Positions 3,575-17,988 of a stretch of DNA of 64,000 nt are shown one piece after another (position 1 is the first letter of the stretch; every line of letters starts with the position of its first letter). The DNA is taken from IMG/VR virus record IMGVR_UViG_3300028840_003497, positions 1-64,000 of that record; one strand, given 5' to 3'. Made by a program: the position numbers and the translations under genes. The stretch is from a virus. The notes beneath the pieces are model-generated. The model made no database searches, had not been told where the DNA came from, and was given only the letters and a program-made list of their open reading frames with translations.

Positions 3575-3581
3575 ATGTTTG

Positions 3582-3654: not shown

Positions 3655-3661
3655 TTTTTAA

Positions 3662-3733: not shown

Positions 3734-3736
3734 GTG

Positions 3737-3808: not shown

Positions 3809-3813
3809 GTCAG

Positions 3814-3887
3814 CGAGGGCAGTAGGATTCGAACCTACAATCTCCGAGTTCGTAGCCCGGTGCCTTGATCCATTTGGCCATGCCCTC
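3814..3887 (-). tRNA. tRNA-Arg(ACG)
   Basis: CCGGG-CTACGAA-CTCGG. Confidence 0.9.
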
Positions 3888-3892
3888 ATCTG

Positions 3893-3964
3893 CTGATCCG
3901 GCAGGAATCGAACCTGCACTTCACCGTCCGGAGCGGCGCGTCGTGTCCATTTGACTACGGATCA
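3893..3964 (-). tRNA. tRNA-Arg(CCG)
   Basis: CGCCG-CTCCGGA-CGGTG. Confidence 0.85.
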
Positions 3965-3969
3965 TCTCG

Positions 3970-4040
3970 TGGATCCACGGGGAGTCGAACCCCGATTTCT
4001 GCCTTGCAAGGGCAGAGTCTTCCCATTGGACGATGGACCC
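3970..4040 (-). tRNA. tRNA-Ala(TGC)
   Basis: CTGCC-CTTGCAA-GGCAG; G3:U70 identity pair present. Confidence 0.9.
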
Positions 4041-4048
4041 ATCTTCAA

Positions 4049-4123
4049 AAGAGGCGACGGGACTTGAACCCGCAATCTTCAGATCCAAAATCTGACGGCT
4101 TGATCCGATTTGCCTACGCCTCT
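4049..4123 (-). tRNA. tRNA-Gln(TTG)
   Basis: TCAGA-TTTTGGA-TCTGA. Confidence 0.85.
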
Positions 4124-4197
4124 GGAGCCTCCGACCGGGATCGAACCGGTGTCTCCGCGTTGGTAACGCAGCGCACTGGCCGCTGTGCTACGGAGGC
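4123..4197 (-). tRNA. tRNA-Gly(ACC)
   Basis: CTGCG-TTACCAA-CGCGG; G1-C72, C2-G71, U73, CCA encoded. Confidence 0.8.
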
Positions 4198-4199
4198 AA

Positions 4200-4271
4200 A
4201 GGATCGGGAGAGAATTGAACTCTCGACAACAGAATTAAAAGTTCTGCGTTCTACCACTGAACTACCGATCC
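4200..4271 (-). tRNA. tRNA-Lys(TTT)
   Basis: CAGAA-CTTTTAA-TTCTG. Confidence 0.9.
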
Positions 4272-4275
4272 AGAT

Positions 4276-4348
4276 AGCCTACGGAGGGAATCGAACCCCC
4301 GACATCCAGATTACAAATCTGGCGTTCTTCCATCTGAACTACGTAGGC
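4276..4348 (-). tRNA. tRNA-Thr(TGT)
   Basis: CCAGA-TTTGTAA-TCTGG. Confidence 0.9.
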
Positions 4349-4353
4349 ATCAG

Positions 4354-4425
4354 AGCCCCTGGCGAGGCTCGAACTCGCTTCTCCGTGTTGGAAGCCCGAT
4401 ACATCACCACTTATGCTTCAGGGGC
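4354..4425 (-). tRNA. tRNA-Gly(TCC)
   Basis: TCGGG-CTTCCAA-CACGG (one mismatch); U73. Confidence 0.8.
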
Positions 4426-4430
4426 ATTCG

Positions 4431-4514
4431 AGGGCCGGGTGAGATTCGAACTCACGAGTGGATTTCTCCGGCGGGTTAACAGCCCGCTGCCTTCGACCAC
4501 TAGGCTACCGACCC
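4431..4514 (-). tRNA. tRNA with GTT (Asn) anticodon on a long-variable-arm, Tyr-like body
   Basis: GCGGG-CTGTTAA-CCCGC followed by the 15-nt variable region CGGAGAAATCCACTC. Confidence 0.8.
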
Positions 4515-4517
4515 ATT

Positions 4518-4590
4518 TGACCCGACCGGGGCTCGAACCCGGACTCTCCAAATTGAAAGTCTGGTGGCTTGCCAATTCGCCTACCGGGCC
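4518..4590 (-). tRNA. tRNA-Glu(TTC)
   Basis: CCAGA-CTTTCAA-TTTGG. Confidence 0.85.
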
Positions 4591-4691
4591 ATCCGAAGGA
4601 AACGACACCTTTTGGGGTTATGTTGGAAAATTACGCGAAAGAAGGAATCCGCAAAGGAGCCGTCCCCGGATCTAGAAATGGGGAATTCAAA

Positions 4692-4704
4692 TTGTCAAAG
4701 AGCG
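4692..4704 (-). promoter_or_regulatory. rrn/nut boxA-like antitermination element CGCTCTTTGACAA
   Basis: Close to the rrn boxA consensus (GCTCTTTAACA); ~100 nt upstream of the first tRNA of the 17-tRNA run and preceded by two hairpins. Confidence 0.55.
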
Positions 4705-4778
4705 AAGTCGATCCTTGGGGTTTTTGCCCCTGGGACGCCTGTTTGTTCTTTGCAATTTGGTTCAGACGTCCCATGGTC

Positions 4779-4883
4779 TTATGGCCTCCCCGCTTCCACG
4801 GCGACCGGGCGTGGATTAGCCCGACGACCACCAGCAGGCTGGCGCGTCTTTATCGCTGTGGTTGTAGTTCTTGCCGTTTCCAT
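4779..4883 (-). CDS. Putative 34-aa leader peptide METARTTTTAIKTR...
   Basis: Strong GAGGAGAGG RBS, just downstream of a promoter and upstream of the hairpins and boxA. Confidence 0.45.
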   Translation of the reverse strand: METARTTTTAIKTRQPAGGRRANPRPVAVEAGRP

Positions 4884-4919
4884 GTTCGCCTCTCCTCGTC
4901 GGAGTGTTAATATGCGGGG

Positions 4920-4948
4920 ATCATAACTCTCCCCGATCCCAATTGCAA
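4920..4948 (-). promoter_or_regulatory. Sigma70-like promoter for the main tRNA run
   Basis: TTGCAA-17-TATGAT inside the last codons of the HNH gene. Confidence 0.6.
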
Positions 4949-5364
4949 GCTTTTCTACATTCATTACAATTAGTTCTTTTCCCAGTCCTAGTACGGCCAT
5001 CTTTTCTCGCCCCAAAAAGATCCAATGGACGGAATCTTTGACAGACATAACACCACGACATTCCCTCTGGAATATCACGCTTCAAATATCCATTCATTCT
5101 TCTTCCTGCTTTATTGCACTTTCGATGCGAAAAAGAAATATTACCCAAATCCCAGAACAAGCCAACATCAACATCGAGCCAATCCCTTTTATGATCAACA
5201 CTAAGGTCCTGATAAGTTTCAATCTTCTCCCCACAGCGATAACAAACATCTTCACCAAGACGCTGAAGAAGCCGAAGCATCAACATCTTCTTCAGTCGAC
5301 CAGATGCCGTACCCATCGGCATTCCGAGCTGATCTGCCTTCTTTTGATTGGAATACCCACTCAT
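4921..5364 (-). CDS. Free-standing HNH endonuclease with C-terminal Zn finger
   Basis: CYRC...SVDH...NISFSHRKCN, then CYVC/CNEC; inserted between tRNA genes. Confidence 0.85.
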   Translation of the reverse strand: MSGYSNQKKADQLGMPMGTASGRLKKMLMLRLLQRLGEDVCYRCGEKIETYQDLSVDHKRDWLDVDVGLFWDLGNISFSHRKCNKAGRRMNGYLKRDIPEGMSWCYVCQRFRPLDLFGARKDGRTRTGKRTNCNECRKACNWDRGEL

Positions 5365-5368
5365 ACAA

Positions 5369-5440
5369 CGGGACCGAAGAGAATCGAACTCTCACCAGCT
5401 GGCTCGACAGGCCAGTGTCATACCATTAGACCACAATCCC
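5369..5440 (-). tRNA. tRNA-Asp(GTC)
   Basis: CTGGC-CTGTCGA-GCCAG; G73. Confidence 0.9.
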
Positions 5441-5451
5441 AAACGACAACC

Positions 5452-5489: not shown

Positions 5490-5505
5490 GCGAACTCAAG
5501 TTCGC
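5490..5505. repeat. 16-bp palindrome copy 2 (GCGAACTCAAGTTCGC)
   Basis: Overlaps a stop codon; 9 nt upstream of the tRNA promoter -35 box. Confidence 0.9.
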
Positions 5506-6464
5506 TCGCAGATCTCCAGCAGTCGATCGGCGAGCACCACGAGGCGTGCATCCTCGGTGAATCTTTTCGATCGCGTCTTGGCCACGATCTTAAACTTCCC
5601 GGACGGGATCTTCTTGGAGGAGACATGGACGATCAGCTCATCACCGGAACCCTGGACGTCCCGCGCCAGCGGCATCAGGATCTGAGGGTCGAGCCCATAC
5701 CCAGGAAGTGGCACCGGAGCAAGCGCCACATCCCTCGGACTGAAAACCTTGGACACGATCACCCATGCGGAGTCCCCGGCGCGTCCACCGATGCCAGATC
5801 TGAATGCCTTCGCCAGCTCGTAGTCGCTGGTCCACGAACTGTACTTCCGCACATCAAGGGCACCCCCCCGGATCAAGTCCCGAGCCTGGTCCCCGTGTAT
5901 TCCGCGATAGAGCTTGATGCGCGTCCCGTATTTTTTCTTGACCGCCTGCTGGACCTTCTCAGAGAACGACTCCCAGTCCCTGTGCTTCGAGGCATTGATC
6001 CCGCTGCTGGATCCCTTCCAGTTTTTCACCTGAAAATCGAGCAGCTTGTGAAACTGCTGAGAGGACCTGGACGAGATGTCGTCGGCTGCATCCCGAACGT
6101 CTCCGCCCCAGTCGAGACCGAATATCGGGTGGTCGAACACAGCGAGGTGCTTCTTCGCTACTGCGTCCACCTTGGTCGTGGCGACCCCGACGGTCCCGGG
6201 AGACCCAGCATGCGTCCCTGTTCCAACTCCGGTCTGGTTCACAGCGTTCTCCATCGCCAACTCGAACTCAGCCTCGACCGACGATCGACTCTTGCCCCTC
6301 ACGATGATGTCGAGACTGATCCCGCTGGATACCGAGAAGTAGAGCGCGTAGTACATGGATCCCCGCTTGACCAGGAAAAACTCCTGCTTGTCGAATCCGT
6401 CGAGCCTCACGAAGCGGAGTATCTTGGGCGTCTCGGCACTCGACTTCTCGATCAGGTTTCTCAT
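5496..6464 (-). CDS. Leader-tagged protein with C-terminal ADP-ribosyltransferase-like domain
   Basis: Starts MRNLIEKSSAE (TGATG overlap). KLYRG, YSSWTSDYELAKAF and DELIV match the R-S-E ART motifs. Confidence 0.65.
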   Translation of the reverse strand: MRNLIEKSSAETPKILRFVRLDGFDKQEFFLVKRGSMYYALYFSVSSGISLDIIVRGKSRSSVEAEFELAMENAVNQTGVGTGTHAGSPGTVGVATTKVDAVAKKHLAVFDHPIFGLDWGGDVRDAADDISSRSSQQFHKLLDFQVKNWKGSSSGINASKHRDWESFSEKVQQAVKKKYGTRIKLYRGIHGDQARDLIRGGALDVRKYSSWTSDYELAKAFRSGIGGRAGDSAWVIVSKVFSPRDVALAPVPLPGYGLDPQILMPLARDVQGSGDELIVHVSSKKIPSGKFKIVAKTRSKRFTEDARLVVLADRLLEICERT

Positions 6465-6781
6465 CACCAGCACTCACAGTTGGTCGCGGTGCAGTCACAA
6501 GCCGACGTGGTCGATGTGTACTGGATATTCGAATAGCATCCGCAGGTTCGCGAGATACATCCGCAGGTCCTCGCAGTTGTCGTCTGCTGTATAATCTGTG
6601 GTGGTTTCGGGGGCTCGATCGGAAGTGGTTTTTTCGCACCATAGGGTCGATCACGAGAGATAACTTTCGTCCTGACTTTTTGATTCGTCCGTTTTTTTAA
6701 CGTGTTCGACTTCTTAAGCGGAGACTGATCCAGGGACTGCACATTACGGAGATCATCCAGGACTTTGTAACGAGGACGCAA
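6464..6781 (-). CDS. Basic protein with Cys/Thr/Ser-rich tail
   Basis: C-terminus RTCGCISRTCGCYSNIQYTSTTSACDCTATNCECW; fills the gap between neighbours exactly. Confidence 0.55.
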   Translation of the reverse strand: MRPRYKVLDDLRNVQSLDQSPLKKSNTLKKRTNQKVRTKVISRDRPYGAKKPLPIEPPKPPQIIQQTTTARTCGCISRTCGCYSNIQYTSTTSACDCTATNCECW

Positions 6782-6791
6782 TCTTTTACCC

Positions 6792-7058
6792 TTAAGGCAG
6801 GACGTAGATGGTCTTGAATCCCCACTTCTTGGCGTGGGTCTTCGCTTTCTTTACAGCCTCTTTCCACGTGCCGGAAAAATTCACCATCTGATCCACAGGA
6901 GGATCCTTTTGGTCCATACCAAAAAACCAACCAGACGGATCCTTTGTCGGATTCCATTTGCCATGGGATCTCTCCCACTCTTTTGTGTTTACCTTCACAG
7001 CCTCATCCAGCTGCTCGCGCCCTCGCTCCTTCATTCTCTCAACCAAATTCCTCATCAC
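6792..7058 (-). CDS. Leader-tagged small protein
   Basis: MRNLVERMK...QLDE|A; mature part is homologous to the C-terminus of 35298-36380. Confidence 0.75.
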   Translation of the reverse strand: MMRNLVERMKERGREQLDEAVKVNTKEWERSHGKWNPTKDPSGWFFGMDQKDPPVDQMVNFSGTWKEAVKKAKTHAKKWGFKTIYVLP

Positions 7059-7104
7059 TTATACTCCTCGTATTGACCAACACATTATTTGATCGTCCCA
7101 TCCT

Positions 7105-7218
7105 TCATTGATAAATGGTAGACTGAGAGACACAACAAGATGCAGCTATTTCCTCCTGAGACCAGCCAGAATCATACTTAGACTGGAGCCAATCCTTGTC
7201 GTGATAAAGCCTGCCCAT
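7105..7218 (-). pseudogene. Truncated helix-turn-helix fragment (37 aa)
   Basis: MGRLYHDKDWLQSKYDSGWSQEEIAASCCVSQSTIYQ* stops within the recognition helix. Confidence 0.5.
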
Positions 7219-7238
7219 AACTACCCGATTCCGCCTCC

Positions 7239-7925
7239 TCAGACCGTTGCAATAGCCTTCTTAGTATCTCTTTTTGCCTGACCAGGAAGGGATCCGGCGA
7301 GGGATGCGTCATGCTGCGCCAGTGTCATCACCAGGGCATTCTTGACCGCGTTCGCCAGGTCGTCCTCAATGAACGCCCTCTTGGCGACGTACTTCTCGGA
7401 ACCCTTCATCAATTTCTGAAACTGCGGAGCCTGGACCATCGCCTTCACCATGCGGTTAATCAGGGATTCTCCAATCGCCTCGGCCAACGCCTCCATGTCT
7501 ACAGCCTCGTCCGCCGGACCTGCTGCACCACCACTCTTAAGGCTCTTGAGAACAGCTGTCAACATCTGCTTGGCGGAGATGAGCGACGCGTGGTCGACAG
7601 TACCACCCTGGCCAATGATGAACGCAGTGATAATCGGCGTAATGAAAGAATAAAGAACCCCTTCGCTCCAATTGTTGGGATCGAGGCCGAGCTTCATCAA
7701 CTCCTTGTTCCACTTCGCCTCGTTCGTCACCATCTTGGCAGCCTTTAAAATCTTATTTATTCCTACTGCCTTCGCCCCCTCCTCGATATCCTCGGGCTCC
7801 GGATTGGATTCCTCCGCCTTCTTGGATTCTTCAAGTTGAGCCTTCTCATCCACGCTCAAACAATCCTCTTTTACGAACGCTTCGATCCCTTCTATTAGCC
7901 CCTTAAAATTTCTCATAACACTCAC
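7239..7925 (-). CDS. Leader-tagged hypothetical protein
   Basis: MRNFKGLIEGIEAFVKE; internal IEE|G and IGE|S junctions. Confidence 0.75.
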   Translation of the reverse strand: MSVMRNFKGLIEGIEAFVKEDCLSVDEKAQLEESKKAEESNPEPEDIEEGAKAVGINKILKAAKMVTNEAKWNKELMKLGLDPNNWSEGVLYSFITPIITAFIIGQGGTVDHASLISAKQMLTAVLKSLKSGGAAGPADEAVDMEALAEAIGESLINRMVKAMVQAPQFQKLMKGSEKYVAKRAFIEDDLANAVKNALVMTLAQHDASLAGSLPGQAKRDTKKAIATV

Positions 7926-7935
7926 CTTTCGTCGC

Positions 7936-8718
7936 TCAGCTTAGTCGTTCAATACTCTTGATTGGGACCTTGCCCTGACCCACAATCTGATAATCTCGCA
8001 CGCGCCCAGCCTTGAGCGTCTGAACGAGGTACTTACTATCTACCACAATCTTCCAGAGATCGCGACCTTCTGTGCTGCCTAAATCACTGCCGAACCCCTG
8101 TGCCCGATCTGCATTGTTCGTCACGAAAATACCAGACGGAACATTTTTTGTTCCATCGTAAATACCACGATCCTTCTTTGGCCTCGCCGTGAACACCTTC
8201 GTCGGCTTCCCAGACTTGTTCGCGCTCCCCGGGTTCCTGATCTCGTTCACCAGCTTGAAGTAGGCGATCTCCAGTTCTTCATCGTGGAAAAAATCTGCGT
8301 CTCCAGCTTCCAGCACGTCATCGACCTCGCGTGGGCCGAAGTAGCTAAACCCAGGAGCACCGCGCCCAGGCTTGCTGCCCTTGAACAGCTTCACATATGC
8401 ATGCTTCACAGGCTCGAACATGTTGTCTTTGCTGTAGTCCGGATAGATCTGAATCCCAACGTCGAGATCTAGCTTGGAGAGGATGCGCCCGAGACCACTC
8501 CCGAGCTTGTGCATGTTCTTCATAGATTTCGGAAACAGCGTCCTGGCCTCCTTGTCAGGATCGAAATCGGCCTTCCCGTTCCGACGCACCGCCCAGTCGT
8601 ATAAATCCTGCATCTCGTCCTTCAGTGCTTCCTCGTACTTGTCCATATCGATGATGACACGACCAGAAGATTCCAACAGAACGAACCCAAGTTCGTCAGT
8701 GAGCCTACGTAATATCAT
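7936..8718 (-). CDS. Leader-tagged protein, possible divergent ART-fold C-terminal domain
   Basis: MILRRLTDELGFVLLE|S; C-domain KVFTAR...GIFVTNNADRAQGF...LWKIVV...DYQI. Confidence 0.6.
   Translation of the reverse strand: MILRRLTDELGFVLLESSGRVIIDMDKYEEALKDEMQDLYDWAVRRNGKADFDPDKEARTLFPKSMKNMHKLGSGLGRILSKLDLDVGIQIYPDYSKDNMFEPVKHAYVKLFKGSKPGRGAPGFSYFGPREVDDVLEAGDADFFHDEELEIAYFKLVNEIRNPGSANKSGKPTKVFTARPKKDRGIYDGTKNVPSGIFVTNNADRAQGFGSDLGSTEGRDLWKIVVDSKYLVQTLKAGRVRDYQIVGQGKVPIKSIERLS
8681..8696. repeat. 16-bp palindrome, degenerate copy 3 (ACGAACCCAAGTTCGT)
   Basis: Inside the 5' end of a CDS. Confidence 0.5.
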
Positions 8719-8870
8719 TTCACCCTATATCCAGCCTTCTTCAGTGTGTGAATTGCTTTGAAAATATCCTCATCAGACTTCATCTGGCCTCTTTTGAGAA
8801 TAACCATGTCATATGAAGAAAATGGAGATTCTGAGACAAAACCACCCAATCTTTCCATCAACTCTCGCAT
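8715..8870 (-). CDS. Leader-tagged small protein (51 aa)
   Basis: Below the track cutoff; MRELMERLGGFVSE|SPFSSYDMVILKRGQMKSDEDIFKAIHTLKKAGYRVK. Confidence 0.7.
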   Translation of the reverse strand: MRELMERLGGFVSESPFSSYDMVILKRGQMKSDEDIFKAIHTLKKAGYRVK

Positions 8871-8872
8871 GA

Positions 8873-9637
8873 TCATCCACCCCTCTTCTTTGCCAACTTG
8901 GCCGTGGCCATCGCCAGAGACTGCTCGGCGGCCTTGAACGCCTTCGGGTCGTCGTCCTTGAGCGCCTTCTGCATCTTCTTCAGCGCGCCACCCAGCTTCC
9001 GACCACCTTTGTTCCGGCTGGCCTTCAGCATCATTGCCTCGACACTGTCCAGTGTTTTTTTGTTATCCGGGATCTTGGTCTTGCCAGTCTTCTTGTTTTT
9101 TTTTGTGCCCCCAGAACCACCAGACGCCCTTCCAGTGCCTTTTTTGGCTTTCTTGGGCTTGACATCCCTGGCCGACGCCTTAGCGCCACCACCGCCTCCT
9201 AGTGCCCCGGAAATCTTGCTCATGATCGCGCCAAGGATGCCCTTCTTCTTTTTCTTGGGAGTTGCCGATCCACCACTTTTATTGGTTGACTTCGACTCTT
9301 TCTTCTTGCCACCGGGAATCTTGGGAGTCGAGCCCGAACCGTCGCTCGGGAAGAAATACCGCTTCCCGCGAATAGTCCTCCACACGCCGATCTTACCAGT
9401 GGAATTAATCTTCCAGAAACCATCACCAACTGCGGTTGTGTAAGCCTCACCAAGCTGCCCTACGTAGAGCATTCCGACCTGACCGTAGTTGTCGTTATCA
9501 ACCTTTTTCTTCTTGCGGGGCCTGATCTCGTCGACCTTGTACATTCGCGCCTTGCCGTATGGCCACGGACGAGTTCCACCTCCAGTCACCGCAAACGGCT
9601 GAGGAGTTCCAGCAATATTGCCAGACGTAGTCGTCAT
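8873..9637 (-). CDS. Lys/Gly-rich basic protein, probably head-internal
   Basis: QLGE|A junction, GVWRTIRGKRYF motif and long K/G/S low-complexity tracts. Confidence 0.7.
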   Translation of the reverse strand: MTTTSGNIAGTPQPFAVTGGGTRPWPYGKARMYKVDEIRPRKKKKVDNDNYGQVGMLYVGQLGEAYTTAVGDGFWKINSTGKIGVWRTIRGKRYFFPSDGSGSTPKIPGGKKKESKSTNKSGGSATPKKKKKGILGAIMSKISGALGGGGGAKASARDVKPKKAKKGTGRASGGSGGTKKNKKTGKTKIPDNKKTLDSVEAMMLKASRNKGGRKLGGALKKMQKALKDDDPKAFKAAEQSLAMATAKLAKKRGG

Positions 9638-9638
9638 G

Positions 9639-9911
9639 TTACCTCCCAGCTCTCACGCCCATCCCGACTGCAAGATTTGTGGCGTCCCGCTTGATCTGAT
9701 TGAGCTTAACCATGAGATCATCGATCTCACTAGCTTCACCTTTGTTGGCCTTGCCCCACTTCGAAGTCGGAATCGCCTTGAGTGCCTTAACTGCCGATCC
9801 AGTGCCCGAAATAACTGTCTTCAACGCACTGTAGACTTTCTTGTCGTCGAAACTGGCCTCTTCCAAATTATCACCTTTTACGTACTTCATCTTTTCGAGC
9901 AAATCACGCAT
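9639..9911 (-). CDS. Leader-tagged small protein
   Basis: MRDLLEKMK...NLEE|A. Confidence 0.75.
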   Translation of the reverse strand: MRDLLEKMKYVKGDNLEEASFDDKKVYSALKTVISGTGSAVKALKAIPTSKWGKANKGEASEIDDLMVKLNQIKRDATNLAVGMGVRAGR

Positions 9912-9922
9912 ATCATCTCCTG

Positions 9923-10207
9923 CTATGGTTTCGTCGGGGCAGGGCCAATGCCCCGCTTGATTTCCCTGAATCCGTTTTCATTATTGTCACAAAAATAATC
10001 GATCAGAGACTTTGAACCATGAATTCTCATCACAGCCCACCCCTTCTGCCAGTGTTTACCTGCGTCCGATTTCTTTACATTCCTAACGTGCAGACCAGCA
10101 CCCTGGGCAAAACGCTGGGTGTTCACGTAATTAGCCGTCTTACCAAATGCCCAAGCGAGACCAGCATATTCTTCCTCTATGCGCTCGATAATCCTACGCA
10201 TCCGCAA
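9923..10207 (-). CDS. Leader-tagged small protein
   Basis: MRRIIERIEEE. Confidence 0.7.
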   Translation of the reverse strand: MRMRRIIERIEEEYAGLAWAFGKTANYVNTQRFAQGAGLHVRNVKKSDAGKHWQKGWAVMRIHGSKSLIDYFCDNNENGFREIKRGIGPAPTKP

Positions 10208-10535
10208 CTACCTCCGGACGCAAAACAACACAGGCTCCATTTCTCGTCTTCACCGTCTCGACAGACTCTACACCTCTGGCACCATCAAATCGACGCGCAA
10301 CTTGACCTCCGACCGACATGGCATGGCGTCCCTCCATGATCATCAACAAGGAAACACCAGACTTTGTCTTGGCCTCAAACACGGTCTTGGAAACTTCACG
10401 ACCTTTGATCGCCCGCTCCCCAGCCGTTTTCATCGACCGGAACAGGCGCTCTTCGGCAACAGTCAAGTCGTTCTGACGATGCTTTTGTGGTACGCCAGAA
10501 ATGAAATCGTGGAGTTTGGTCGTAAGTTTTTCCAT
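10194..10535 (-). CDS. Hypothetical protein with leader-like N-terminus
   Basis: MEKLTTKLHDFISG...VAEE; TGATG overlap with the upstream gene. Confidence 0.65.
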   Translation of the reverse strand: MEKLTTKLHDFISGVPQKHRQNDLTVAEERLFRSMKTAGERAIKGREVSKTVFEAKTKSGVSLLMIMEGRHAMSVGGQVARRFDGARGVESVETVKTRNGACVVLRPEVVADA

Positions 10536-11227
10536 CAACCTTCCTTCCATTTCCAATACGCTGATTCGCTTCCAAAGAAACGCTCTGTGTCGCTACCGCC
10601 AAATTCGGGATCAAATTCCTCATAATCCGGCATCTGTTTCTTTAACTCCTTCATCACTGTCTTGATAAGGGGCCACAAGTTCTTGCTCGGATCAAACGGC
10701 TTCTTTTTACGCTCCCATTGAGCCTCGATGTTGATTCCATCCTTTGGAGGCTCCGGAGACATCATCACACCGTCATCCCTGGCCTCTGGATCGAAACGGT
10801 CAACCATCACACTGCAAACCACACCCTCACCATCCCCATATGGGTAGCACGAGATAGCGAAGTCCGCGCTGGCAAGATCGACCGTCGTGTTCATCGGCTT
10901 GCCTCGTTGACCAGCCTCGTAGTCAGGCTCGATCATGCCGTCCCCGATGCCAATCGGATACCCATACTTGGCCTCCAACTGACTCTCCATTATCGCCTCG
11001 CCAAACTTGTCAAGAACCTGCTTGTCTAACGCCAGTGCTTCTGTGATATCCCACGGCCTCGGAAGCATGCGAGGAATCTCAGAAACTCTCGCCCTCATGG
11101 CAGCGCCGATCTGCTTGGCCAACATTTTGTCAGCATCGCTCGCGCGCTTGCGAGTACGACGTTTCCGAACCTTCTTCGCCCTGCCCTCCGAGATAAATCG
11201 GCCCAAATTATCAATAAGATGTTTCAT
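10535..11227 (-). CDS. Leader-tagged modular protein
   Basis: MKHLIDNLGRFISE|G, a basic segment, then QLE|A; start revised. Confidence 0.7.
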   Translation of the reverse strand: MKHLIDNLGRFISEGRAKKVRKRRTRKRASDADKMLAKQIGAAMRARVSEIPRMLPRPWDITEALALDKQVLDKFGEAIMESQLEAKYGYPIGIGDGMIEPDYEAGQRGKPMNTTVDLASADFAISCYPYGDGEGVVCSVMVDRFDPEARDDGVMMSPEPPKDGINIEAQWERKKKPFDPSKNLWPLIKTVMKELKKQMPDYEEFDPEFGGSDTERFFGSESAYWKWKEG

Positions 11228-11278
11228 TGTTTCACGCCAACTTCCATGGGTTTTGTCCGCACACATAAAATGCTCATC

Positions 11279-11788
11279 TTATTTTTCCAAATGACGAGCG
11301 TCTTCGTTTTTCTCGACCAGACCACCGTAGAGCGCATTGATGCCCATTGCAATGTGTTCCGGATGGATATCGAACACTTTAGACTTGTCCTCGATCTCCA
11401 CCGGTTTGCTAATACCCACCGACATCGATCCGCGCTTCCAGAACTCCCACTTGTCACCCTTGCGAGAAACAACAATATCAATCTGCCAATTATCCCCGGC
11501 CAGCCGAACTCCACCGATCGACCCTCCACCACCCATTGGCGGCATATGGGTGATCTCCACCTTGAGACCCTTCTGATTCTGTCGCAGGTACTTTTTAGTC
11601 ACCACAGCTACGTTGCCCAGAAAGGCCTTCTCCGCAGCCTTGATCTTGTCGTTAATAGAGACGGTAGCTTCGGCAAGCGCCTGAGCCTCCTCGTCCAACT
11701 GCTGATCGTCCTGAGAGTACGACTCCACCAAAGGTGTCATCCCGGCTAGATAGCGCATCTCACTCATGAATTTATCTTTTGACATCAC
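11279..11788 (-). CDS. Leader-tagged protein (second leader class)
   Basis: MSKDKFMSEMRYLAGMTPLVE...LAE|A. Confidence 0.7.
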   Translation of the reverse strand: MMSKDKFMSEMRYLAGMTPLVESYSQDDQQLDEEAQALAEATVSINDKIKAAEKAFLGNVAVVTKKYLRQNQKGLKVEITHMPPMGGGGSIGGVRLAGDNWQIDIVVSRKGDKWEFWKRGSMSVGISKPVEIEDKSKVFDIHPEHIAMGINALYGGLVEKNEDARHLEK

Positions 11789-11812
11789 ACACTCTCCCAG
11801 GGCATACCCTTG

Positions 11813-12328
11813 CTATACTGTCGGGATCATCTCTCCGAATAGGTAGACGTTTGCCAGCGAACCAGCGGTTCCTGTCGTGTCAGCTTTTGTCACTTTGACG
11901 AAAACTTCAGCATTGCCACCCATCGCCGCCTTCTTGACCGCGCTCAGATCGACAACCAACTTGTCGTTCAAGGTCGTCACCGCGATGACAGTCGCCGCCA
12001 GGATCTCGGTTCCGCCAGTGGTAATCCCGATAGTGATCTCGCCGTCGCCAGCCAATGTTCCGCCAACGCCAGTGCAGTGAACAACAGCTGTAACTGGGAC
12101 AAACTGCTTCGTCGCCACACCACCGATTTCCTTCGACTGCTCGTCGTTCAGCGTCACGATGTCTAAGTCCTCGACCAACACGCGAACTTTCTCGCCGCCG
12201 TTATCCAACACGTCGGCAAGGGAGTCTCCCTCGGAAACGGTGTCGTTCGGGATCTGTGATGCGAAAGGGATCGCCCCTTTGCTACGAATGTCATTTCCGG
12301 ACGGTGCATTTGTTCTGTTTCTGGACAT
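11813..12328 (-). CDS. Putative virion structural (head decoration-like) protein
   Basis: Gly/Thr/Val-rich beta-strand composition. Confidence 0.5.
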   Translation of the reverse strand: MSRNRTNAPSGNDIRSKGAIPFASQIPNDTVSEGDSLADVLDNGGEKVRVLVEDLDIVTLNDEQSKEIGGVATKQFVPVTAVVHCTGVGGTLAGDGEITIGITTGGTEILAATVIAVTTLNDKLVVDLSAVKKAAMGGNAEVFVKVTKADTTGTAGSLANVYLFGEMIPTV

Positions 12329-12348
12329 CTTTTCCTCCTTTGCGGGTA

Positions 12349-13308
12349 TTATACCCGATTTATAAAATCATTTAAAACATATCGCCCGTCACTGTGAGAG
12401 GCGAAGTCTCGATGCGCCACAATGCCCGGCCCAGGACGGCCTTTAGGTTTCATTGTGAGACCCTCGATCTGTCTCTTCTTCTTGTTCAAACCCTTAGTCG
12501 GAAACCGGAACGGAATACCAGTGAGTTTGCATATCCATGGCACCAGCAACCGAATCGCTGCCATCTGACGATCAGTAGGCAACACGTACCTGCGATCCTT
12601 CTTGTCCGGACACCACGTCCACCAGAGCGCTTTAATAAACTTCGACCAGATAGACTCGTCACGCACATACTTAGGAGCATATGGATTCACAATCTCCACA
12701 CCGATACTCGTGTCGTTAATCTGGTTGGCATGAACCATCCGATCCAAAACCAAATCTCCGTGGCAACTCAAGTGGCCATCAGGATCCAGGATCAACTGAA
12801 CTCCGTAGCCCTTCTTGAGCAGCGTACGTTTACACCCCTTGGCCGTATTCCCGCACGTCTCGTGCAAAACAAAGTGGATCAAATCCGCAGATCTCTGCCG
12901 ATGCTTAAAATGTGGCTCGCCATCATCCTCATAATTGGAAGCTGTCAACCCAGCATCAATAAACCCTTTTGGAAGCGTAACCCGCTCTCCATTCACAATA
13001 ATAGCATTCGAATACCCATGCTCGTTTGGCTTTCCATACGGAGGTGGATCTAAATCTGGACTCGGCTTTTTCGGTGTCTCCACCGATGTATCATCCTCGC
13101 TCTTTTTAATTGCCTTCAGCGTCACAGGCCCGAGCTTTCCGTCCACCTCAAGATTCTTCGACATTTGAAAACAAGCCGTCGCCCAGATAAATGTTTTAGA
13201 ATCAGAGAGACACCACGGCCACGGGAGATCCTTTAGTTCGTAGAGGCTTCCTAATTTTCCTGCATTGTGATGTATCGCAGATGTGACCTGTTTCTTCGTA
13301 AGCATCAT
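12349..13308 (-). CDS. Endolysin: peptidoglycan-binding domain plus N-acetylmuramoyl-L-alanine amidase (Amidase_2 type)
   Basis: FQ..KNLEVDGKLGPVT binding motif; FVLHET, HA..NDTSIGVE and IVAHRD..HSDG zinc-amidase motifs. Confidence 0.9.
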   Translation of the reverse strand: MMLTKKQVTSAIHHNAGKLGSLYELKDLPWPWCLSDSKTFIWATACFQMSKNLEVDGKLGPVTLKAIKKSEDDTSVETPKKPSPDLDPPPYGKPNEHGYSNAIIVNGERVTLPKGFIDAGLTASNYEDDGEPHFKHRQRSADLIHFVLHETCGNTAKGCKRTLLKKGYGVQLILDPDGHLSCHGDLVLDRMVHANQINDTSIGVEIVNPYAPKYVRDESIWSKFIKALWWTWCPDKKDRRYVLPTDRQMAAIRLLVPWICKLTGIPFRFPTKGLNKKKRQIEGLTMKPKGRPGPGIVAHRDFASHSDGRYVLNDFINRV

Positions 13309-13802
13309 CCCACCATCAATCCGGCACGAGACGCACGATCTCGCACACGGCTCTTTTTGATTTTCTTAAACATCCTGTTCATCGATTTCACTTTGCTCGT
13401 GCCATCAGCCGTCCATCCAATCGGGTCAAGCGCCGTCCTGAGCCTGTTTACATTCGCATGCTCTGGATCGTCCACGGCACCTCGAAGGGTTACCTCCTGT
13501 CGGTACCAGAACCCGAATGAATGCCGAGTCCACTCGATCGTGAATTTGATATTCTCTCCGTTTGCCGGAACCGTTACATAGACCCGAATAAGACCCACAT
13601 TACGCCTCCTGCGACTCAGCAAATCACCCACCAACATCATCGTGTACTCAGACTGCCCACGAGGACGTGGAGATACCAGCTCCCTCTTGATCCGCCCCAT
13701 TCTCAGGAGTAGATCGCGCACCATGTCCAACCCCGCCTCGGCGGCTTGCGCCTGGGGTGACTCGGCTGCCGTCTCCGGCTTATTAGGAACTGCACCTGTC
13801 AT
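13305..13802 (-). CDS. Hypothetical protein
   Basis: ORF packed against the endolysin start. Confidence 0.6.
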   Translation of the reverse strand: MTGAVPNKPETAAESPQAQAAEAGLDMVRDLLLRMGRIKRELVSPRPRGQSEYTMMLVGDLLSRRRRNVGLIRVYVTVPANGENIKFTIEWTRHSFGFWYRQEVTLRGAVDDPEHANVNRLRTALDPIGWTADGTSKVKSMNRMFKKIKKSRVRDRASRAGLMVG

Positions 13803-13820
13803 CTTTAGCCTTCAAATTTT

Positions 13821-14480
13821 TCATTTCTTACCTCCAAGAAGTTCTCCTAGATCTGGCAACCTATCCCTCACAGGGACCTCTTGCTGCTGCTGAATCAGGT
13901 CATCCAGTGATTTCTTCTTGCCCTCACGCGGGAGCGCGTGCGCCACAGGTGGTTTCGTAGCGACCGATCCTTCGCCGTCAGACGCACCCACAGGCTCCAT
14001 AGCGCCCTCTCCGTCCGTGTCGGCGTCTCCGTCGGCAGCTGCAGGAAACAGCTCCTCCGGGGGCAACAGGCCCGCGCTGGAGCCATCCACTCCAACACCA
14101 GAGCTTCCACCACCGCCAAACCCCCGCATGGCCTCCATCACGTCCAGGGCTTCGTCCTCGATAGAACCATCCAAGGCGTAGGCTGTGCTTCCGCCGCCAA
14201 TCATATCCAGCTTCGTCTGGAGCCGGGTCAGCTCGATCAACATCTTCTGATTGATCTCAGCCTGTCGCTTCCGAGCCTCGGTGTTGTCCTCCGCATCCTT
14301 CGCAAGAAGGGGATACGCACTCTCGATCGCCGTCAGGGCCTTCTCGTCAGTATCGTCGATAAATCGCTCCCACAGACCAGGCGTACTGGCGAGGGTGATC
14401 AGCAAGATCATAACCGGGTGAAACCCAGCCTTCTTCATAGCAGTCACCTTGTCCATAACGCTTGTCCTGTCGTCGCCCAT
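13821..14480 (-). CDS. Membrane-anchored coiled-coil protein (possible lysis accessory)
   Basis: N-terminal hydrophobic segment, coiled coil and acidic low-complexity tail. Confidence 0.55.
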   Translation of the reverse strand: MGDDRTSVMDKVTAMKKAGFHPVMILLITLASTPGLWERFIDDTDEKALTAIESAYPLLAKDAEDNTEARKRQAEINQKMLIELTRLQTKLDMIGGGSTAYALDGSIEDEALDVMEAMRGFGGGGSSGVGVDGSSAGLLPPEELFPAAADGDADTDGEGAMEPVGASDGEGSVATKPPVAHALPREGKKKSLDDLIQQQQEVPVRDRLPDLGELLGGKK

Positions 14481-14489
14481 CGATTCCTC

Positions 14490-14774
14490 CTACGGCATAT
14501 GAATCGTCCAGACCTTGCCGCTGGACTCATGGCCCACATTTGCTTCCGGATACTTCTTCTGAACCTCGTCCGCGAATCGATCGAACAGCTTCAAGCCGTC
14601 CATCTCTGCATCCACGTCGGTGTGAATCGTGATGGACTTGCCCTTCTTCACGACCTTGCCGAACTGATCCCTGCCGATAATCTTGCTGAGCACCCTGGTC
14701 AACCAGCTTATCTTGACACCACCACCGAGGACCCCATCGGCAATCTTGATCTTCTTCTCTATCAACTGTCTCAT
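14490..14774 (-). CDS. Leader-tagged small protein
   Basis: MRQLIE|KK. Confidence 0.75.
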   Translation of the reverse strand: MRQLIEKKIKIADGVLGGGVKISWLTRVLSKIIGRDQFGKVVKKGKSITIHTDVDAEMDGLKLFDRFADEVQKKYPEANVGHESSGKVWTIHMP

Positions 14775-14807
14775 TCGTTTAACTCCTCGTGCCTCACCAG
14801 TCGTTCA

Positions 14808-15119
14808 CTATACTTCTGTGGCCTGTTTTCGCGCCCAATTCCTGTCAGAAGAAAACTCCTTAACTACTGGTTTGATTTTCTTGTAAATGTCTTTGCCTGC
14901 CATGTCAGAAAGCCAGTTAGACACACCTATGATGCTACCACTGACCGTCTGTTTTCCCGGACTGCCATTTTCAAATTCTACCTCGACATCAACAACCACG
15001 TAGGTGTTGCGGCTCTTCTCCAGTTTTCTAATCTGGTTTCTAAGACCCTTATCGAAGTCTTTTGCCGAAAACACCTCAGCCAGACATCTTGATTTTAAAC
15101 GCTCTATTAAAAGTCTCAT
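14808..15119 (-). CDS. Leader-tagged small protein
   Basis: MRLLIERLKSRCLAE|V. Confidence 0.75.
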   Translation of the reverse strand: MRLLIERLKSRCLAEVFSAKDFDKGLRNQIRKLEKSRNTYVVVDVEVEFENGSPGKQTVSGSIIGVSNWLSDMAGKDIYKKIKPVVKEFSSDRNWARKQATEV

Positions 15120-15481
15120 CCGTTTAGCTCCTTTGGCTTGTCATCGTCATCCATCTCAGACGTGTCATCCCAGTCAGGACCATCGTCATCGTCGTCGTCA
15201 TGCACATGAGACTGCCCGTTGCCGTTTCTAGCCCCAAGAGCGCCACTCACAGCCGCTGCAACGTCCGCGCCCCTACCCACAGCCCTCTCGGCTGCCTTAG
15301 CGGCACCCTGAGCCCCGTGATCACTGATGCCTTGACCAAGAATATACGTCGCCAGAATACCAAGCGCAGAGTACATAGCCTGATCACTCACAATCTTACC
15401 CAGCACATCGTTTACGATCATTCCAATCGCAGCCAATACACCCACTATCAATTTCTTCGATTTCAGACTATTAAAATCCAT
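15116..15481 (-). CDS. Putative holin
   Basis: LKSKKL followed by two TM helices ending YILGQGISD; charged C-terminal tail; near the endolysin. Confidence 0.65.
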   Translation of the reverse strand: MDFNSLKSKKLIVGVLAAIGMIVNDVLGKIVSDQAMYSALGILATYILGQGISDHGAQGAAKAAERAVGRGADVAAAVSGALGARNGNGQSHVHDDDDDDGPDWDDTSEMDDDDKPKELNG

Positions 15482-15490
15482 GTCAATCTC

Positions 15491-15811
15491 CTACTTTTTA
15501 AAGTGTTTTATAATCCTCGACGCCGCACTCTTTGCACTCAAGCCAGTAGAGTATCGAGGAGCACCTTTACCAGCCAAAGAAACCACCCACCCATCATCGT
15601 CTATCCCGACCCTGATCACGGGCTTGTCTCTCCATCCCTCATACGTCAACATCCAGGCTGGATCATCCTGGCCAGGTCGATCTATCCGCTTGAATACAAT
15701 CTCGTAATCAGGGAGTTTATTGTCAACCATACTCTTGATTGTATTAATTTCACGGACATGTTTGGGCACATCCACCAGGCGACGCATCTTTTGTTCAATT
15801 AGTTTCCTCAT
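15491..15811 (-). CDS. Leader-tagged small protein
   Basis: MRKLIE|QK. Confidence 0.75.
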   Translation of the reverse strand: MRKLIEQKMRRLVDVPKHVREINTIKSMVDNKLPDYEIVFKRIDRPGQDDPAWMLTYEGWRDKPVIRVGIDDDGWVVSLAGKGAPRYSTGLSAKSAASRIIKHFKK

Positions 15812-15836
15812 AACACAACTCCTTCTCCAGCACTCA

Positions 15837-16253
15837 TCACGACACCACAGCCCACTGAAGCCCGCGCTGCTTCGCTATTCGTTCTGCCGATTCAATCGCA
15901 TCTTCCTTGTCATCAAAAGACGCCAACTTTTCCCAGTTTCCACTTGCGAGAGGACCAATAATGACATCCCAAACCCCATCGATCAACTCGACTTCAATAC
16001 GCTGCACTATCGCAGCATCGCTCAAAACAGCTCGCAATTTTCGAATTGCTGAACTCTCAATATTTTTGATAATTGCTTCGGATCGCCGGAGAAGCTTCGG
16101 ATCTGCCGTTTTTTTAAACCTCTCGATGTTGCCAACAAGCGTATCAAGAGAATCTTTGATGTCACGAATCTCGTTCCTCACTTGCCTCAGAATCGAATTT
16201 CCAAGCCCTGTCTTTTCCAACTTGCGTTTCTTTGATTCTATGATATCACGCAC
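15837..16253 (-). CDS. Leader-tagged protein
   Basis: GTG start after GGAGG, giving MRDIIE|SK; helical domain paralogous to 16806-17441. Confidence 0.7.
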   Translation of the reverse strand: MRDIIESKKRKLEKTGLGNSILRQVRNEIRDIKDSLDTLVGNIERFKKTADPKLLRRSEAIIKNIESSAIRKLRAVLSDAAIVQRIEVELIDGVWDVIIGPLASGNWEKLASFDDKEDAIESAERIAKQRGLQWAVVS

Positions 16254-16266
16254 AATAAATCCTCCC

Positions 16267-16282
16267 GCGAACTTGAGTTCGC
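16267..16282. repeat. 16-bp palindrome copy 4 (GCGAACTTGAGTTCGC)
   Basis: Exactly between a stop codon and the next RBS. Confidence 0.9.
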
Positions 16283-16804
16283 TCAGTCGTAAACACCAAG
16301 ACGATCTCCCCATGAAGGAGTCCCTCTGAACAATATCTCATTCGCTACATCCTGTGGGGAATCGCTGAATATCTTCATTCCGCTTAGACCACTCGGAGCC
16401 TTGACAGCTCCTGACTTCTTGTCGTCTCCACGATTAGCCTTCACCGTCAGCGACGGGCTGAGTTTATGTTCCATATTGATATAGATAGCAAATTCACCAC
16501 CCGCGTACGGGAGCGATGTGTCACCCTCGAACTTGACCCACAGTGATGCTCCTTGAACCTTCGCGCCGTACGTGGAGTACCCGCGCTCAGTGAGATGCTC
16601 GACCAGGATGAACCCGACCATCTGCAGAAATTCAGAAACGACCCCCTGCCATCCCTGTTGAAACTTTGCGCGCCTGTTGGTCGAGAAATCCGATCCCTCA
16701 TCAATATTTTTCCTAAAGGCATCCTCACCCAGCACCTTCTCCGGCCTCACACCAGCGTACTCCAAGACCTCCGTCAGAATTTGATTCTTGCTCTTTATCC
16801 GCAT
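16283..16804 (-). CDS. Leader-tagged protein (second class)
   Basis: MRIKSKNQILTEVLEYAGVRPEKVLGED...IDE|G. Confidence 0.75.
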   Translation of the reverse strand: MRIKSKNQILTEVLEYAGVRPEKVLGEDAFRKNIDEGSDFSTNRRAKFQQGWQGVVSEFLQMVGFILVEHLTERGYSTYGAKVQGASLWVKFEGDTSLPYAGGEFAIYINMEHKLSPSLTVKANRGDDKKSGAVKAPSGLSGMKIFSDSPQDVANEILFRGTPSWGDRLGVYD

Positions 16805-16805
16805 A

Positions 16806-17441
16806 TCAAACTCCTTTCTTGACGTCCTGCTCGTACCCCTTCACCAGCGAGCGCATTCCACCCTCGCCATACTCTCCGTCAACCAGAAACTGCATCTTCT
16901 CCTGGAAGTGCGGAATGTCGCCCATAAAATCTACCGGCGGGATCTTTGCAAGCTCCTTGAGTGCCGAATCAATAAAATCTACGGCCTTCTTGAACGCAAC
17001 AGCGCGCTTCTTTAAGTTCGCCTTGGTCTTCGGAGCTAGTTCCTTCCTAGTCCGAGGATACTTGTAAGCAGCAGCCTCTTCAATATCACTCTTCTCTCCG
17101 AGCGATTCACCCTTGTGTGCGCTACGCACCCGCAAAGAAAGCCCCCCTTTGTAATCGTCGAGCATGCCACGCAACTTGCGAAAACCTGCTTTCTCAATTG
17201 AGTCAAGCGCCATGCCAGCTCTAGTAATCGTCGTCTTGTCAATCTTGGAATCGAGTTTCTTAACATATCCGACGAACATATCGAGAAAAGACTTGATATC
17301 CTTTACCTCATCCTTGGCAGCCATGTACACACCACGAGGCTCCCCCTCGGCAATATCATCCTCTCCGAGCACCTTCTTTGGATCGATTCCCGCGTTCCCA
17401 ATCATCTCGGACAGTAATTGTTTTTTCGTTTTCGTGATCAT
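16806..17441 (-). CDS. Leader-tagged modular protein (second class)
   Basis: MITKTKKQLLSEMIGNAGIDPKKVLGED..IAE|G...IEE|A; start revised. Confidence 0.75.
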   Translation of the reverse strand: MITKTKKQLLSEMIGNAGIDPKKVLGEDDIAEGEPRGVYMAAKDEVKDIKSFLDMFVGYVKKLDSKIDKTTITRAGMALDSIEKAGFRKLRGMLDDYKGGLSLRVRSAHKGESLGEKSDIEEAAAYKYPRTRKELAPKTKANLKKRAVAFKKAVDFIDSALKELAKIPPVDFMGDIPHFQEKMQFLVDGEYGEGGMRSLVKGYEQDVKKGV

Positions 17442-17445
17442 GATC

Positions 17446-17988
17446 CTACTCCCAACCGTAGTCGTCTTTGCAGACCTTGAATGCCTTCTCAAACGCCTTC
17501 TTAGCGGTTGGCCCAGAACCGTGCGCGACAACCCTGTTGGCATGTTTGTCAGAGCTTTCTCTGACGCCGAACTCGTATTTCTCCGGCTGTCCGTATCCGC
17601 CCATGTGGAAGATACGAATCTCCCCCTGGCTCTTGCGTTTCTCTTCGTCTAGACCATCCGCGTCCTCATCCTCGTCCTCTCCAAGCACACTCTTGGCCGC
17701 CGTGGTCAAAGCATCAGACACCGCCGACAGATACTTCTTAGCCGTGTCGTCGTCCTTCGCGGCGACGGCAAGACCCTTAAGAAGCTGGACCATCTTGAAC
17801 TGCGCGTCGGCGTCTTTGTAGTCCGTGTCACGCAGGGCCTTGATGATACCCTCCGTCTTGTTTTCCTCGTCGAGCAACTGACAAAGCATCTCCAAGGATG
17901 CCGCCGCATCTGTCACAACAGCCTCAGACTCGTCCAGATGTTTACCATCGATAATATTACCCAGATCTTCGATTATTTTCTTTTTCAT
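17446..17988 (-). CDS. Leader-tagged modular protein
   Basis: MKKKIIEDLGNIIDGKHLDE|S; three LDE junctions. Confidence 0.75.
   Translation of the reverse strand: MKKKIIEDLGNIIDGKHLDESEAVVTDAAASLEMLCQLLDEENKTEGIIKALRDTDYKDADAQFKMVQLLKGLAVAAKDDDTAKKYLSAVSDALTTAAKSVLGEDEDEDADGLDEEKRKSQGEIRIFHMGGYGQPEKYEFGVRESSDKHANRVVAHGSGPTAKKAFEKAFKVCKDDYGWE

Follow-up and report, generated by a model that had tools for sequence, protein, structure and literature searches.

The stretch of DNA analysed here, called the window below, comprises 64,000 nucleotides (nt), positions 1 to 64,000 of IMG/VR record IMGVR_UViG_3300028840_003497. It is the first 64 kb of a single phage genome of 176,267 bp, in which about 250 of the 257 called genes are on the minus strand. 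The subject of this study is a gene block at positions 5496-17988, with tail tube genes directly upstream and a tRNA array directly downstream. Many proteins encoded there begin with the same short N-terminal tag, M-[RK]-x-[LI]-[IL]-E-[KR], a candidate leader for packaging into the phage head. The genes of the block are (lengths in amino acids, aa):

5496..6464, minus strand: tagged protein a, 322 aa, MRNLIEK; predicted N-terminal WGR-like domain and predicted C-terminal ADP-ribosyltransferase-fold domain
6792..7055, minus strand: tagged protein b, 87 aa, MRNLVER; body homologous to the last 74 aa of the head-module protein encoded at 35298-36380
7239..7916, minus strand: loosely tagged, acidic protein c, 225 aa, MRNFKGLIEGIEAFVKE
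7936..8718, minus strand: tagged protein d, 260 aa, MILRRLTDELGFVLLES (one homologue: MRKIIESRRVLLES); predicted ADP-ribosyltransferase-superfamily fold at residues 168-260
8715..8870, minus strand: tagged protein e, 51 aa, MRELMERLGGFVSES, of the long-leader type
8873..9637, minus strand: protein f, 254 aa, Lys-rich and without tag; precedes the d domain in a fusion protein of a related lineage
9639..9911, minus strand: tagged protein g, 90 aa, MRDLLEK
9923..10201, minus strand: tagged protein h, 92 aa, MRRIIER
10194..10535, minus strand: protein i with a degenerate long leader, 113 aa, MEKLTTKLHDFISG (orthologue: MKHLTNQLQDFIAD)
10535..11227, minus strand: tagged protein j, 230 aa, MKHLIDNLGRFISEG with a Lys/Arg run behind it (orthologues: MRDLIESLGKFIAES, MKRLLESLGTFLDEA)
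12349..13308, minus strand: untagged amidase (Amidase_2, 5.9e-9) with a peptidoglycan-binding repeat, probable endolysin
14490..14774, minus strand: tagged protein p, 94 aa, MRQLIEK
14808..15119, minus strand: tagged protein q, 103 aa, MRLLIER
15491..15811, minus strand: tagged protein s, 106 aa, MRKLIEQ
15837..16253, minus strand: tagged protein t, 138 aa, GTG start, MRDIIES
16283..17441, minus strand: proteins u and v, 173 and 211 aa, with a common, displaced N-terminal motif ..Q[IL]L[TS]E[VM][LI]..AG[VI].P.K[VI]LGED
17446..17988, minus strand: loosely tagged, acidic protein w, 180 aa, MKKKIIEDLGNIIDG, directly downstream of the tail tube genes

Untagged genes within the block code for the amidase, two membrane proteins and a Lys-rich protein. 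An earlier reading of the window (the original prediction) had described the block as a library of leader-tagged proteins. All N-termini quoted in it were found at the given starts on the minus strand, including that of the 51-aa open reading frame (ORF) beginning with MRELME at 8870, which had been missed by the ORF track.

The strict pattern [RK]x[LI][LIVM]E occurs at residues 2-6 in 15 of the 257 proteins, while 0.12 occurrences are expected from its frequency inside proteins (Poisson p = 8e-27). With a position matrix the score distribution is bimodal: 17 members score 13.8-21 bits, and the next best N-terminus reaches 6.4 bits. Ten of these 17 clear members are encoded in the block, together with about eight looser ones, six are found at genome positions 150,050-152,984 (cluster 2 in the following), and one at 129,072. 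The block had originally been taken to hold the whole set; this holds for the ten members, while seven more are encoded outside the window. A six-frame scan was also performed, using every ATG, GTG and TTG start and a threshold of 9 bits. All matches are on the coding strand and all but two are real gene starts, the exceptions being an out-of-frame ORF (10.5 bits) and a mini-ORF of 20 aa (11.8 bits).

The consensus of 43 tagged proteins is M-[R33/K10]-x-[L37/I5]-[I32/L7]-[E40/D3]-[R17/K16]-[K16/L15/M7]. The tag ends with an L/I-x-E motif, with Leu or Ile at position 4 and, considered purely as a sequence motif, Glu6 in 40 of the 43 proteins and Asp in three. Its codons vary, with AGA, AGG, CGA and CGT for Arg, CTG, TTG, CTA, TTA, CTC and CTT for Leu, ATC, ATA and ATT for Ile, and GAA and GAG for Glu. 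The 45 nt upstream of the tagged genes have only the Shine-Dalgarno sequence in common. With variable synonymous codons and unrelated DNA upstream, the conserved unit is the peptide: selection has kept the tag at the level of protein and not of DNA or RNA.

A longer leader, M-[RK]-x-L-[IM]-[ED]-x-L-G-x-F-[IV]-x-E, is found in about six members (e, j and the gene at genome position 151,702; in looser form c, d, w and i). There is also a third flavour, ..L-[TSD]-E-M..-A-G-[IMV], in u and v, perhaps in k, and in several genes of the related locus L007. The original prediction had proposed a second hydrophobic-x-E junction, located behind the tag, as a feature of most members. It is present in the long-leader members. 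As a general family feature it was rejected, since a hydrophobic-x-E at residues 9-35 occurs in 67% of the members and in 44% of the other proteins, which is not distinctive; the density of such sites in the bodies equals the background.

Behind the tag, the proteins have little in common. An all-against-all BLASTP comparison of the bodies, from which the first eight residues had been removed, found nearly all of them to be unrelated, with one weak pair (151146/151412). Taken together with the enrichment of the tag, this confirms the original notion of otherwise unrelated proteins with a common N-terminus. The lengths range from 51 to 322 aa, and a polyprotein arrangement was not seen. The bodies had been called Lys/Arg-rich, and they are indeed basic, with a median isoelectric point (pI) of 9.5 versus 5.5 for other proteins; 82% versus 29% are above pI 8 (Mann-Whitney p = 3e-6). 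Pfam and PHROGs searches with the proteins of the block gave the amidase as the sole significant match. The isolated member at 129 kb, outside the window, has a KTSC domain (1e-14). A protein atlas search with protein j gave no match, and neither did tblastn searches of proteins a and d, nor a near-identity DNA search of the block, against a phage collection.

Two of the tagged proteins could be assigned to a fold by structure prediction. Protein d has 20 homologues and was modelled with a pLDDT (predicted local distance difference test) of 83. In the structure comparison, the best 50 VIA matches of residues 168-260 are almost all to the ADP-ribosyltransferase (ART) superfamily, with Z-scores up to 8.1. 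The closest are KptA (Z 8.1, root-mean-square deviation (rmsd) 2.9 Å, 84 aligned residues), TreTu (Z 7.8, rmsd 2.5 Å, 83 aligned) and diphtheria toxin (Z 7.7, rmsd 3.0 Å, 89 aligned), followed by TreX, Arr, PARPs and pertussis-like toxins. Foldseek returned Tpt1/KptA and TreTu with probabilities of 0.95-0.99. In the family of d, Arg179 and Gln244 are invariant, Ser195 is nearly so, and no Glu is invariant. By its fold, the model assigns protein d to the ART superfamily.

The case for protein a is weaker. It has four homologues, which retain tag-like starts such as MRGILES and MRALIER. Across the five sequences Arg187 (YRG), Ser209/210 (SSW) and Glu276 are invariant, which is consistent with an R-S-E arrangement. 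The pLDDT is 65-82 in the C-terminal core, which matches mostly ARTs (Z 5-6.6), while the N-terminal part resembles the WGR domain of PARP (Z 5.3-5.8). By this model of low confidence, protein a would also have an ART fold. The Pfam search gave no match to ADPrib_exo_Tox or any other ART family for a and d, and a profile of protein a did not match any PDB sequence.

In addition, a few observations were made on individual genes of the block. The similarity between protein b and the head-module protein encoded at 35298-36380 amounts to 35% over 74 aa; the latter has 360 aa and starts with MLDLEELKK, which contains an L-E-E site. In the 327-nt gap between a and b there is an uncalled ORF of 105 codons (6464-6781, minus strand) with a TTG start, which is untagged and Lys/Arg-rich and has a Cys-rich C-terminus. 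A copy of a dispersed palindrome, GAACTCAAGTTC, is located at 16255-16275, some 15 nt before the GTG that starts tagged gene t.

Tagged genes are not restricted to this phage. In eight IMG/VR loci with a tube protein that is 74-89% identical, the tube genes are followed by a run of MRxLIE genes, the bodies of which are partly different; in one relative, a tagged gene is located between the two tube genes. From this genome and the partial loci of about five relatives, 44 distinct tagged proteins were collected, which represent 35 body families. A complete relative of 195 kb with terminal repeats has 17 copies of the tag DNA pattern on the coding strand and none on the opposite strand (3 and 0 for the reversed pattern, used as control), and these are clustered likewise. 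Orthologues with 40-60% body identity retain the tag. As judged from these genes, the tag is portable between bodies, and gene content turns over fast between relatives, as expected of the variable set originally proposed.

A profile search with the family of protein d retrieved 34 viral loci from many large phages. The C-terminal domain of d is found there behind N-termini that differ between lineages, and neighbouring genes of the same locus often have the same N-terminus as the d-type protein. In locus L025, the leader of the d domain is MRSLIRQLEE and neighbouring proteins start with MTRMRSLIERLEE and MTTMRILIERLEE. In L050, it is MKTFYQFLEN, next to MISFYKFLEN and MLNFYDFLEM. MKTFTQWLEN is found in L037, MQTFFEWLSS in L036, and MNTLGRFRLVVEA in L039, where two neighbours are similar. 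MRSLIERLEE is a further N-terminus of this set. Most of these lineage-specific leaders end in hydrophobic-x-Glu, and those of the type MKTF.Q[FW]LEN are close to the leaders of the internal proteins (IPs) of phage T4. An S77 protease is encoded in three of five such records, the less fragmentary ones; the two without it are 12% and 21% complete. The protease N-termini are MPQLLIET, ..AQLLIETYE and MNQQQLFID. As the d domain has quite different N-termini across lineages, tag and body appear to have separate histories.

In some large phages (L029, L042 and homologues P0018-P0024), the d-type ART domain and the products of neighbouring genes start with M-x-W-Y-[KR]-[KT] (MNWYKKIAAN, MAWYKKASKS, MGWYNTIPSK), possibly another kind of tag; a related-locus search with the homologue P0023 found none. 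In L022 and L023 (positions 7797-8756), f and d are fused into a protein of 319 aa that does not have the d leader.

The head genes of the window, and the tRNA array next to the block, are:

38506..40131, minus strand: Gp23-type major capsid protein (Pfam Gp23, 2.8e-68), N-terminal region with RAILE, DLLE and ILLE sites
40163..41788, minus strand: gp21-family prohead protease (Pfam Peptidase_S77, 1.8e-13), long acidic C-terminal extension with many [LI]xE sites
43878..47747, minus strand: T4-type portal (gp20; Pfam Portal_T4, 1.6e-55), interrupted by inteins
3255..5441, minus strand: 16 tRNA genes in an array that directly follows the block

The gp21-family protease had been part of the original prediction, and its gene indeed adjoins the capsid gene. 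Identification of the portal fixes the order of the head genes as T4-like, with the portal gene first, then two small genes, and then protease and capsid. Further products of the window are a contractile sheath and two gp19-like tube proteins. The phage is of marine sediment origin. The nearest capsid protein among GenBank phages is only 31% identical and the DNA of the phage is present in sediment and seawater metagenomes. Together with the T4-type head genes, this characterizes the phage, by its gene content, as an uncultivated, distant T4-like myovirus.

The annotated protease ORF (40163-41938) has a TTG start. The true start is almost certainly the ATG at 41788, which gives the N-terminus MPNLLIES. 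This ATG and the AAAAAGGRTGAT spacer are kept in five relatives. In the 150 nt upstream, 6, 30 and 14 variable columns fall on codon positions 1, 2 and 3, which indicates another frame, while variation past the ATG falls at codon position 3. The other frame stops with a TGA two bases before the ATG.

Some further observations concern the head gene region. Between the protease gene and the gene at 42011-43003 (positions 41795-41990, minus strand), comparison of six relatives revealed that the other frame codes for a very basic peptide, ...FESLKKAARGDGKKTDRRVSPEAKRKLDRNPLARTRIRRWRSKTGKKG. This may be a small basic gene that was not called, possibly with a GTG start, or the upstream gene may continue into it by a frameshift. 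An RNA element was considered for this conserved stretch and rejected, as Rfam gave only a chance match below threshold and the stretch is coding in another frame. The inteins of the portal gene carry an HNH nuclease, a gene for a protein of 1096 aa beside the portal contains an intein with a LAGLIDADG domain, and a SNF2-like gene of 971 aa shows a weak LAGLIDADG-like match below cutoff (all within 43878-55006).

The block and cluster 2 differ in their promoters. A sigma-70-like promoter family, with an extended -35 box GTTGACAAAC, a 17-nt spacer and a TAnnnT -10 box, has about 15 intergenic sites: one at window positions 5452-5480 and 14 across 74-153 kb of the genome, mostly in the non-structural region of 74-150 kb. 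It is probable that this family marks early transcription units. There is none inside the block and the next one (5480) directly follows its last gene; a generic promoter and terminator scan of the block remained at chance level. The block probably continues the tail operon, and the promoter at 5452-5480 is a putative promoter for the tRNA-Asp/HNH/tRNA array just after it. The T4 late promoter TATAAATA has zero copies on the coding strand, and late promoters could therefore not be mapped.

Two irregular genes were noticed in cluster 2. At genome positions 151,112-151,136 (L016:4112-4136, minus strand), a tagged gene has an in-frame TAG at the codon of Glu6 (MKKII*KKLEEKRKVGPDAF), where the complete relative has MKEIIEKKLEEKRKVGPDDY; this may represent a leaderless protein translated from a TTG just downstream, a pseudogene, or a case of stop codon readthrough. 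At 150,760-150,822, a mini-ORF of 20 codons begins like the tag (VKEFIEKKRGDGAMGLGGKV*) and shares 4 nt with the start of an untagged gene for a protein of 121 aa; it could be either an upstream ORF or what is left of a broken leader.

We consider it likely that the tag is a capsid-targeting and protease-cleavage leader of the T4 kind, which is cut after Glu6. The reasons are the T4-type head genes, the enrichment of the tag and its portability, its similarity to the N-termini of prohead core proteins, the basic bodies, and the ART folds. The tag would dock each protein on the scaffolding core during prohead assembly, and the S77 protease would then cut at the L/I-x-E site after Glu6. In the six long-leader members, a further cut might follow after F-[IV]-x-E at residues 11-14. 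Once mature, the basic proteins would remain beside the DNA in the head and pass into the host at infection. There, a and d would modify host targets at once as ART-fold enzymes, like T4 Alt, while the small basic cargos would act like IPI-III of T4, as DNA-associated proteins or as blockers of host defence. As the tag is short and portable, cargo genes could be gained, lost and exchanged quickly among related phages. The packaged payload proposed in the original prediction is thus supported in part. The likeliest cut is after Glu6, not, or not only, at the later junctions, and the set exceeds the block. Tentatively, and with clearly less confidence than for the leader itself, we propose that about 8% of the genes of this phage (at least 20) might form a fast-changing, capsid-delivered library, in which a six-residue tag copies the N-terminus of prohead core proteins and protease, and that cargo domains might swap lineage-specific tags (MRxLIE, MKTF.Q[FW]LEN, M.xL.RFRLVVEA).

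Several points weigh against this proposal. One concerns expression. Cluster 2 is flanked by two promoters of the sigma-70-like family, one (GTTGACAAAC...TAAGCT) 50 nt ahead of its first gene and the next directly behind its last gene. With these flanking promoters, cluster 2 looks like a separate unit, and is probably an early one. The 129-kb member is located within the region of 74-150 kb that is rich in promoters of this family. Seven of the 17 members may thus be early genes. In T4, the ip genes are expressed before late times too. The tag is shorter than the capsid-targeting sequence (CTS) of T4 and is not homologous to it. A Lys or Arg directly behind the cut (P1') is atypical of the T4 sites that were read, and three members have Asp in place of Glu6. 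In T4, an Asp at the cut position stops processing and does not affect targeting (PMC9026906). Covariation between the leaders and the protease N-terminus was sought across lineages and none was found; QLLIE is kept at the protease start whatever the leader, and thus no covariation ties leader to protease. Some d-family lineages have an N-terminus (MNWYK...) without a Glu site. Finally, the model of protein a has a low overall confidence (pLDDT 50.6).

The tag could instead be a docking peptide for a partner outside the capsid, such as a phage or host chaperone or a modifying enzyme, or it could be a degradation signal or a membrane-proximal helix, with the proteins acting in the producing cell. 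We regard this as unlikely, although cluster 2 and the 129-kb member are found behind promoters of the early type. A candidate partner would be the 572-aa protein with an HExxH motif that is encoded just upstream of cluster 2. As a processing enzyme this protein was rejected: its counterpart in the complete relative has 163 aa and lacks the HExxH part, Pfam gave no match for this part, and a related-locus search with the protein found none. None of the candidates for a partner enzyme is thus conserved. Moreover, the tag has the form of the N-termini of T4 prohead core proteins and of the phage's own protease, and the same cargo bears leaders similar to the T4 CTS elsewhere.

It seems even less probable that the proteins form a much-diverged paralogous family that arose by serial duplication, with the N-terminus as the last conserved remnant and not as a signal. 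The genes do occur in tandem clusters, many bodies are small, basic and hard to compare, and besides the weak pair 151146/151412 there are the pairs u/v and the MRNVLDEM genes of L007. However, the lengths vary widely (51-322 aa), the bodies include a WGR-like domain with an ART fold, a different ART-fold domain and a KTSC domain, and 35 body families were distinguished; bodies this different argue against a single diverged family, as do the quite different N-termini of the d domain in other lineages. Least probable of all, and hardly to be expected, is a feature at the nucleotide level or of translation initiation (a cassette of ribosome-binding site and start codon, a recombination joint, or an A-rich start without structure). 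Translational coupling is seen for many of the genes, and their first codons are rich in A, but this explanation is contradicted by the varied synonymous codons and by upstream regions that share only the Shine-Dalgarno sequence.

If the tag is indeed a packaging leader, the consequences would be considerable. Injected phage proteins act before any phage gene is expressed and are therefore prime candidates for first-strike counter-defence and host takeover. To our knowledge, only three internal proteins and Alt are known from T4, and a defined target only for IPI. Some 20 proteins per genome with an address that is readable from sequence, falling into about 35 body families in a handful of relatives, would provide a large catalogue of candidate injected effectors, including two new ART-fold families, and sequence alone would suffice to read the injected proteome of uncultured T4-like phages. 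The d family behind its lineage-specific leaders represents a natural domain-swap experiment, by which the idea of targeting can be tested. No shorter natural signal for capsid loading would be known, and a tag of six residues could find use in loading phage capsids with foreign proteins, a purpose that the T4 CTS already serves.

The closest known counterpart is found in T4 (NC_000866), where IPII and IPIII start with MKTYQEFIAE, IPI with MKTFKEF..., gp67 with MEGLIEA, gp21 with MNEPQLLIET, gp22 with MLKEQLIAEA, and Alt with MELITELFDE. All of these are built into the prohead core. They have in common a short N-terminal segment with an I/L-x-E end. The propeptides of the IPs have 10-19 residues and direct these proteins to the core, whereas only 7 residues are removed from Alt; an LIE-9 site near the N-terminus of gp21 may target it to the prohead, and the CTS may serve T4-like phages generally for the loading of various proteins (PMC9026906). 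The internal proteins of T-even phages are highly diverse defence proteins with the CTS as their sole common part (PMC3012670). Processing by gp21 of IPI, IPII and IPIII with the CTS MKTYQEFIAE is attributed to Mullaney & Black 1996, as cited in PMC8442874.

Like the T4 IPs, the proteins described here are unrelated, basic and non-essential-looking, have a short, putative N-terminal propeptide that ends in hydrophobic-x-Glu, vary as a set among related phages, and are encoded together with a gp21-family protease, a gp23 capsid and a gp20 portal. In the long-leader subset, the leader ends with F-I-[SA]-E, similar to the end of the CTS. Unlike in T4, where the CTS has 10-19 residues and there are three IP genes, the tag has 6-7 conserved residues of other sequence and heads about 20 genes in two tandem clusters. 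No homology to the CTS MKTYQEFIAE was found, and MRxLIE[KR] is closer to the N-termini of gp67, gp21 and Alt. The gene order in T4 is ipII-ipIII-e (lysozyme)...eight tRNA genes...ipI, all on one strand; here, the tagged genes surround the amidase gene and abut the tRNA array, as the ip genes adjoin endolysin and tRNA genes. This synteny supports the cargo reading weakly.

Like Alt, proteins a and d are predicted to have an ART fold, and they have a very short leader with I/L-x-E at residues 4-6, in the same register. They differ in length (322 and 260 aa versus 682) and no sequence relationship was detected; for protein a, the hhalign probability against Alt is 0.06%. Protein d resembles ARTs of the KptA/TreTu type. 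The tag has almost the form of the gp67 N-terminus and resembles the LLIE of gp21, and it is also like the start of the phage's own protease, MPNLLIES. The accessory proteins thus seem to carry a copy of the type of N-terminus that is found on this protease. In T4, gp67, gp21 and gp22 are scaffold or protease parts that are degraded, while the motif here heads a large, variable accessory set. It has been argued by Iyer et al. 2022 that ARTs are often packaged into the heads of myoviruses (PMC9503650). The MuF- and portal-fused effectors and polyvalent proteins described there are likewise enzymes, often ARTs, delivered from myovirus heads, but the fused effectors are addressed by a whole structural domain and not by a removable tag of six residues.

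In summary, a removable N-terminal address on variable internal proteins is a principle already established for T4 and the T-even phages. What would be new is a minimal tag that is gp67/Alt-like and not CTS-like, its presence on about 8% of the genes in two clusters, two ART-fold cargo families, and a single cargo family that occurs behind several lineage-specific leaders.

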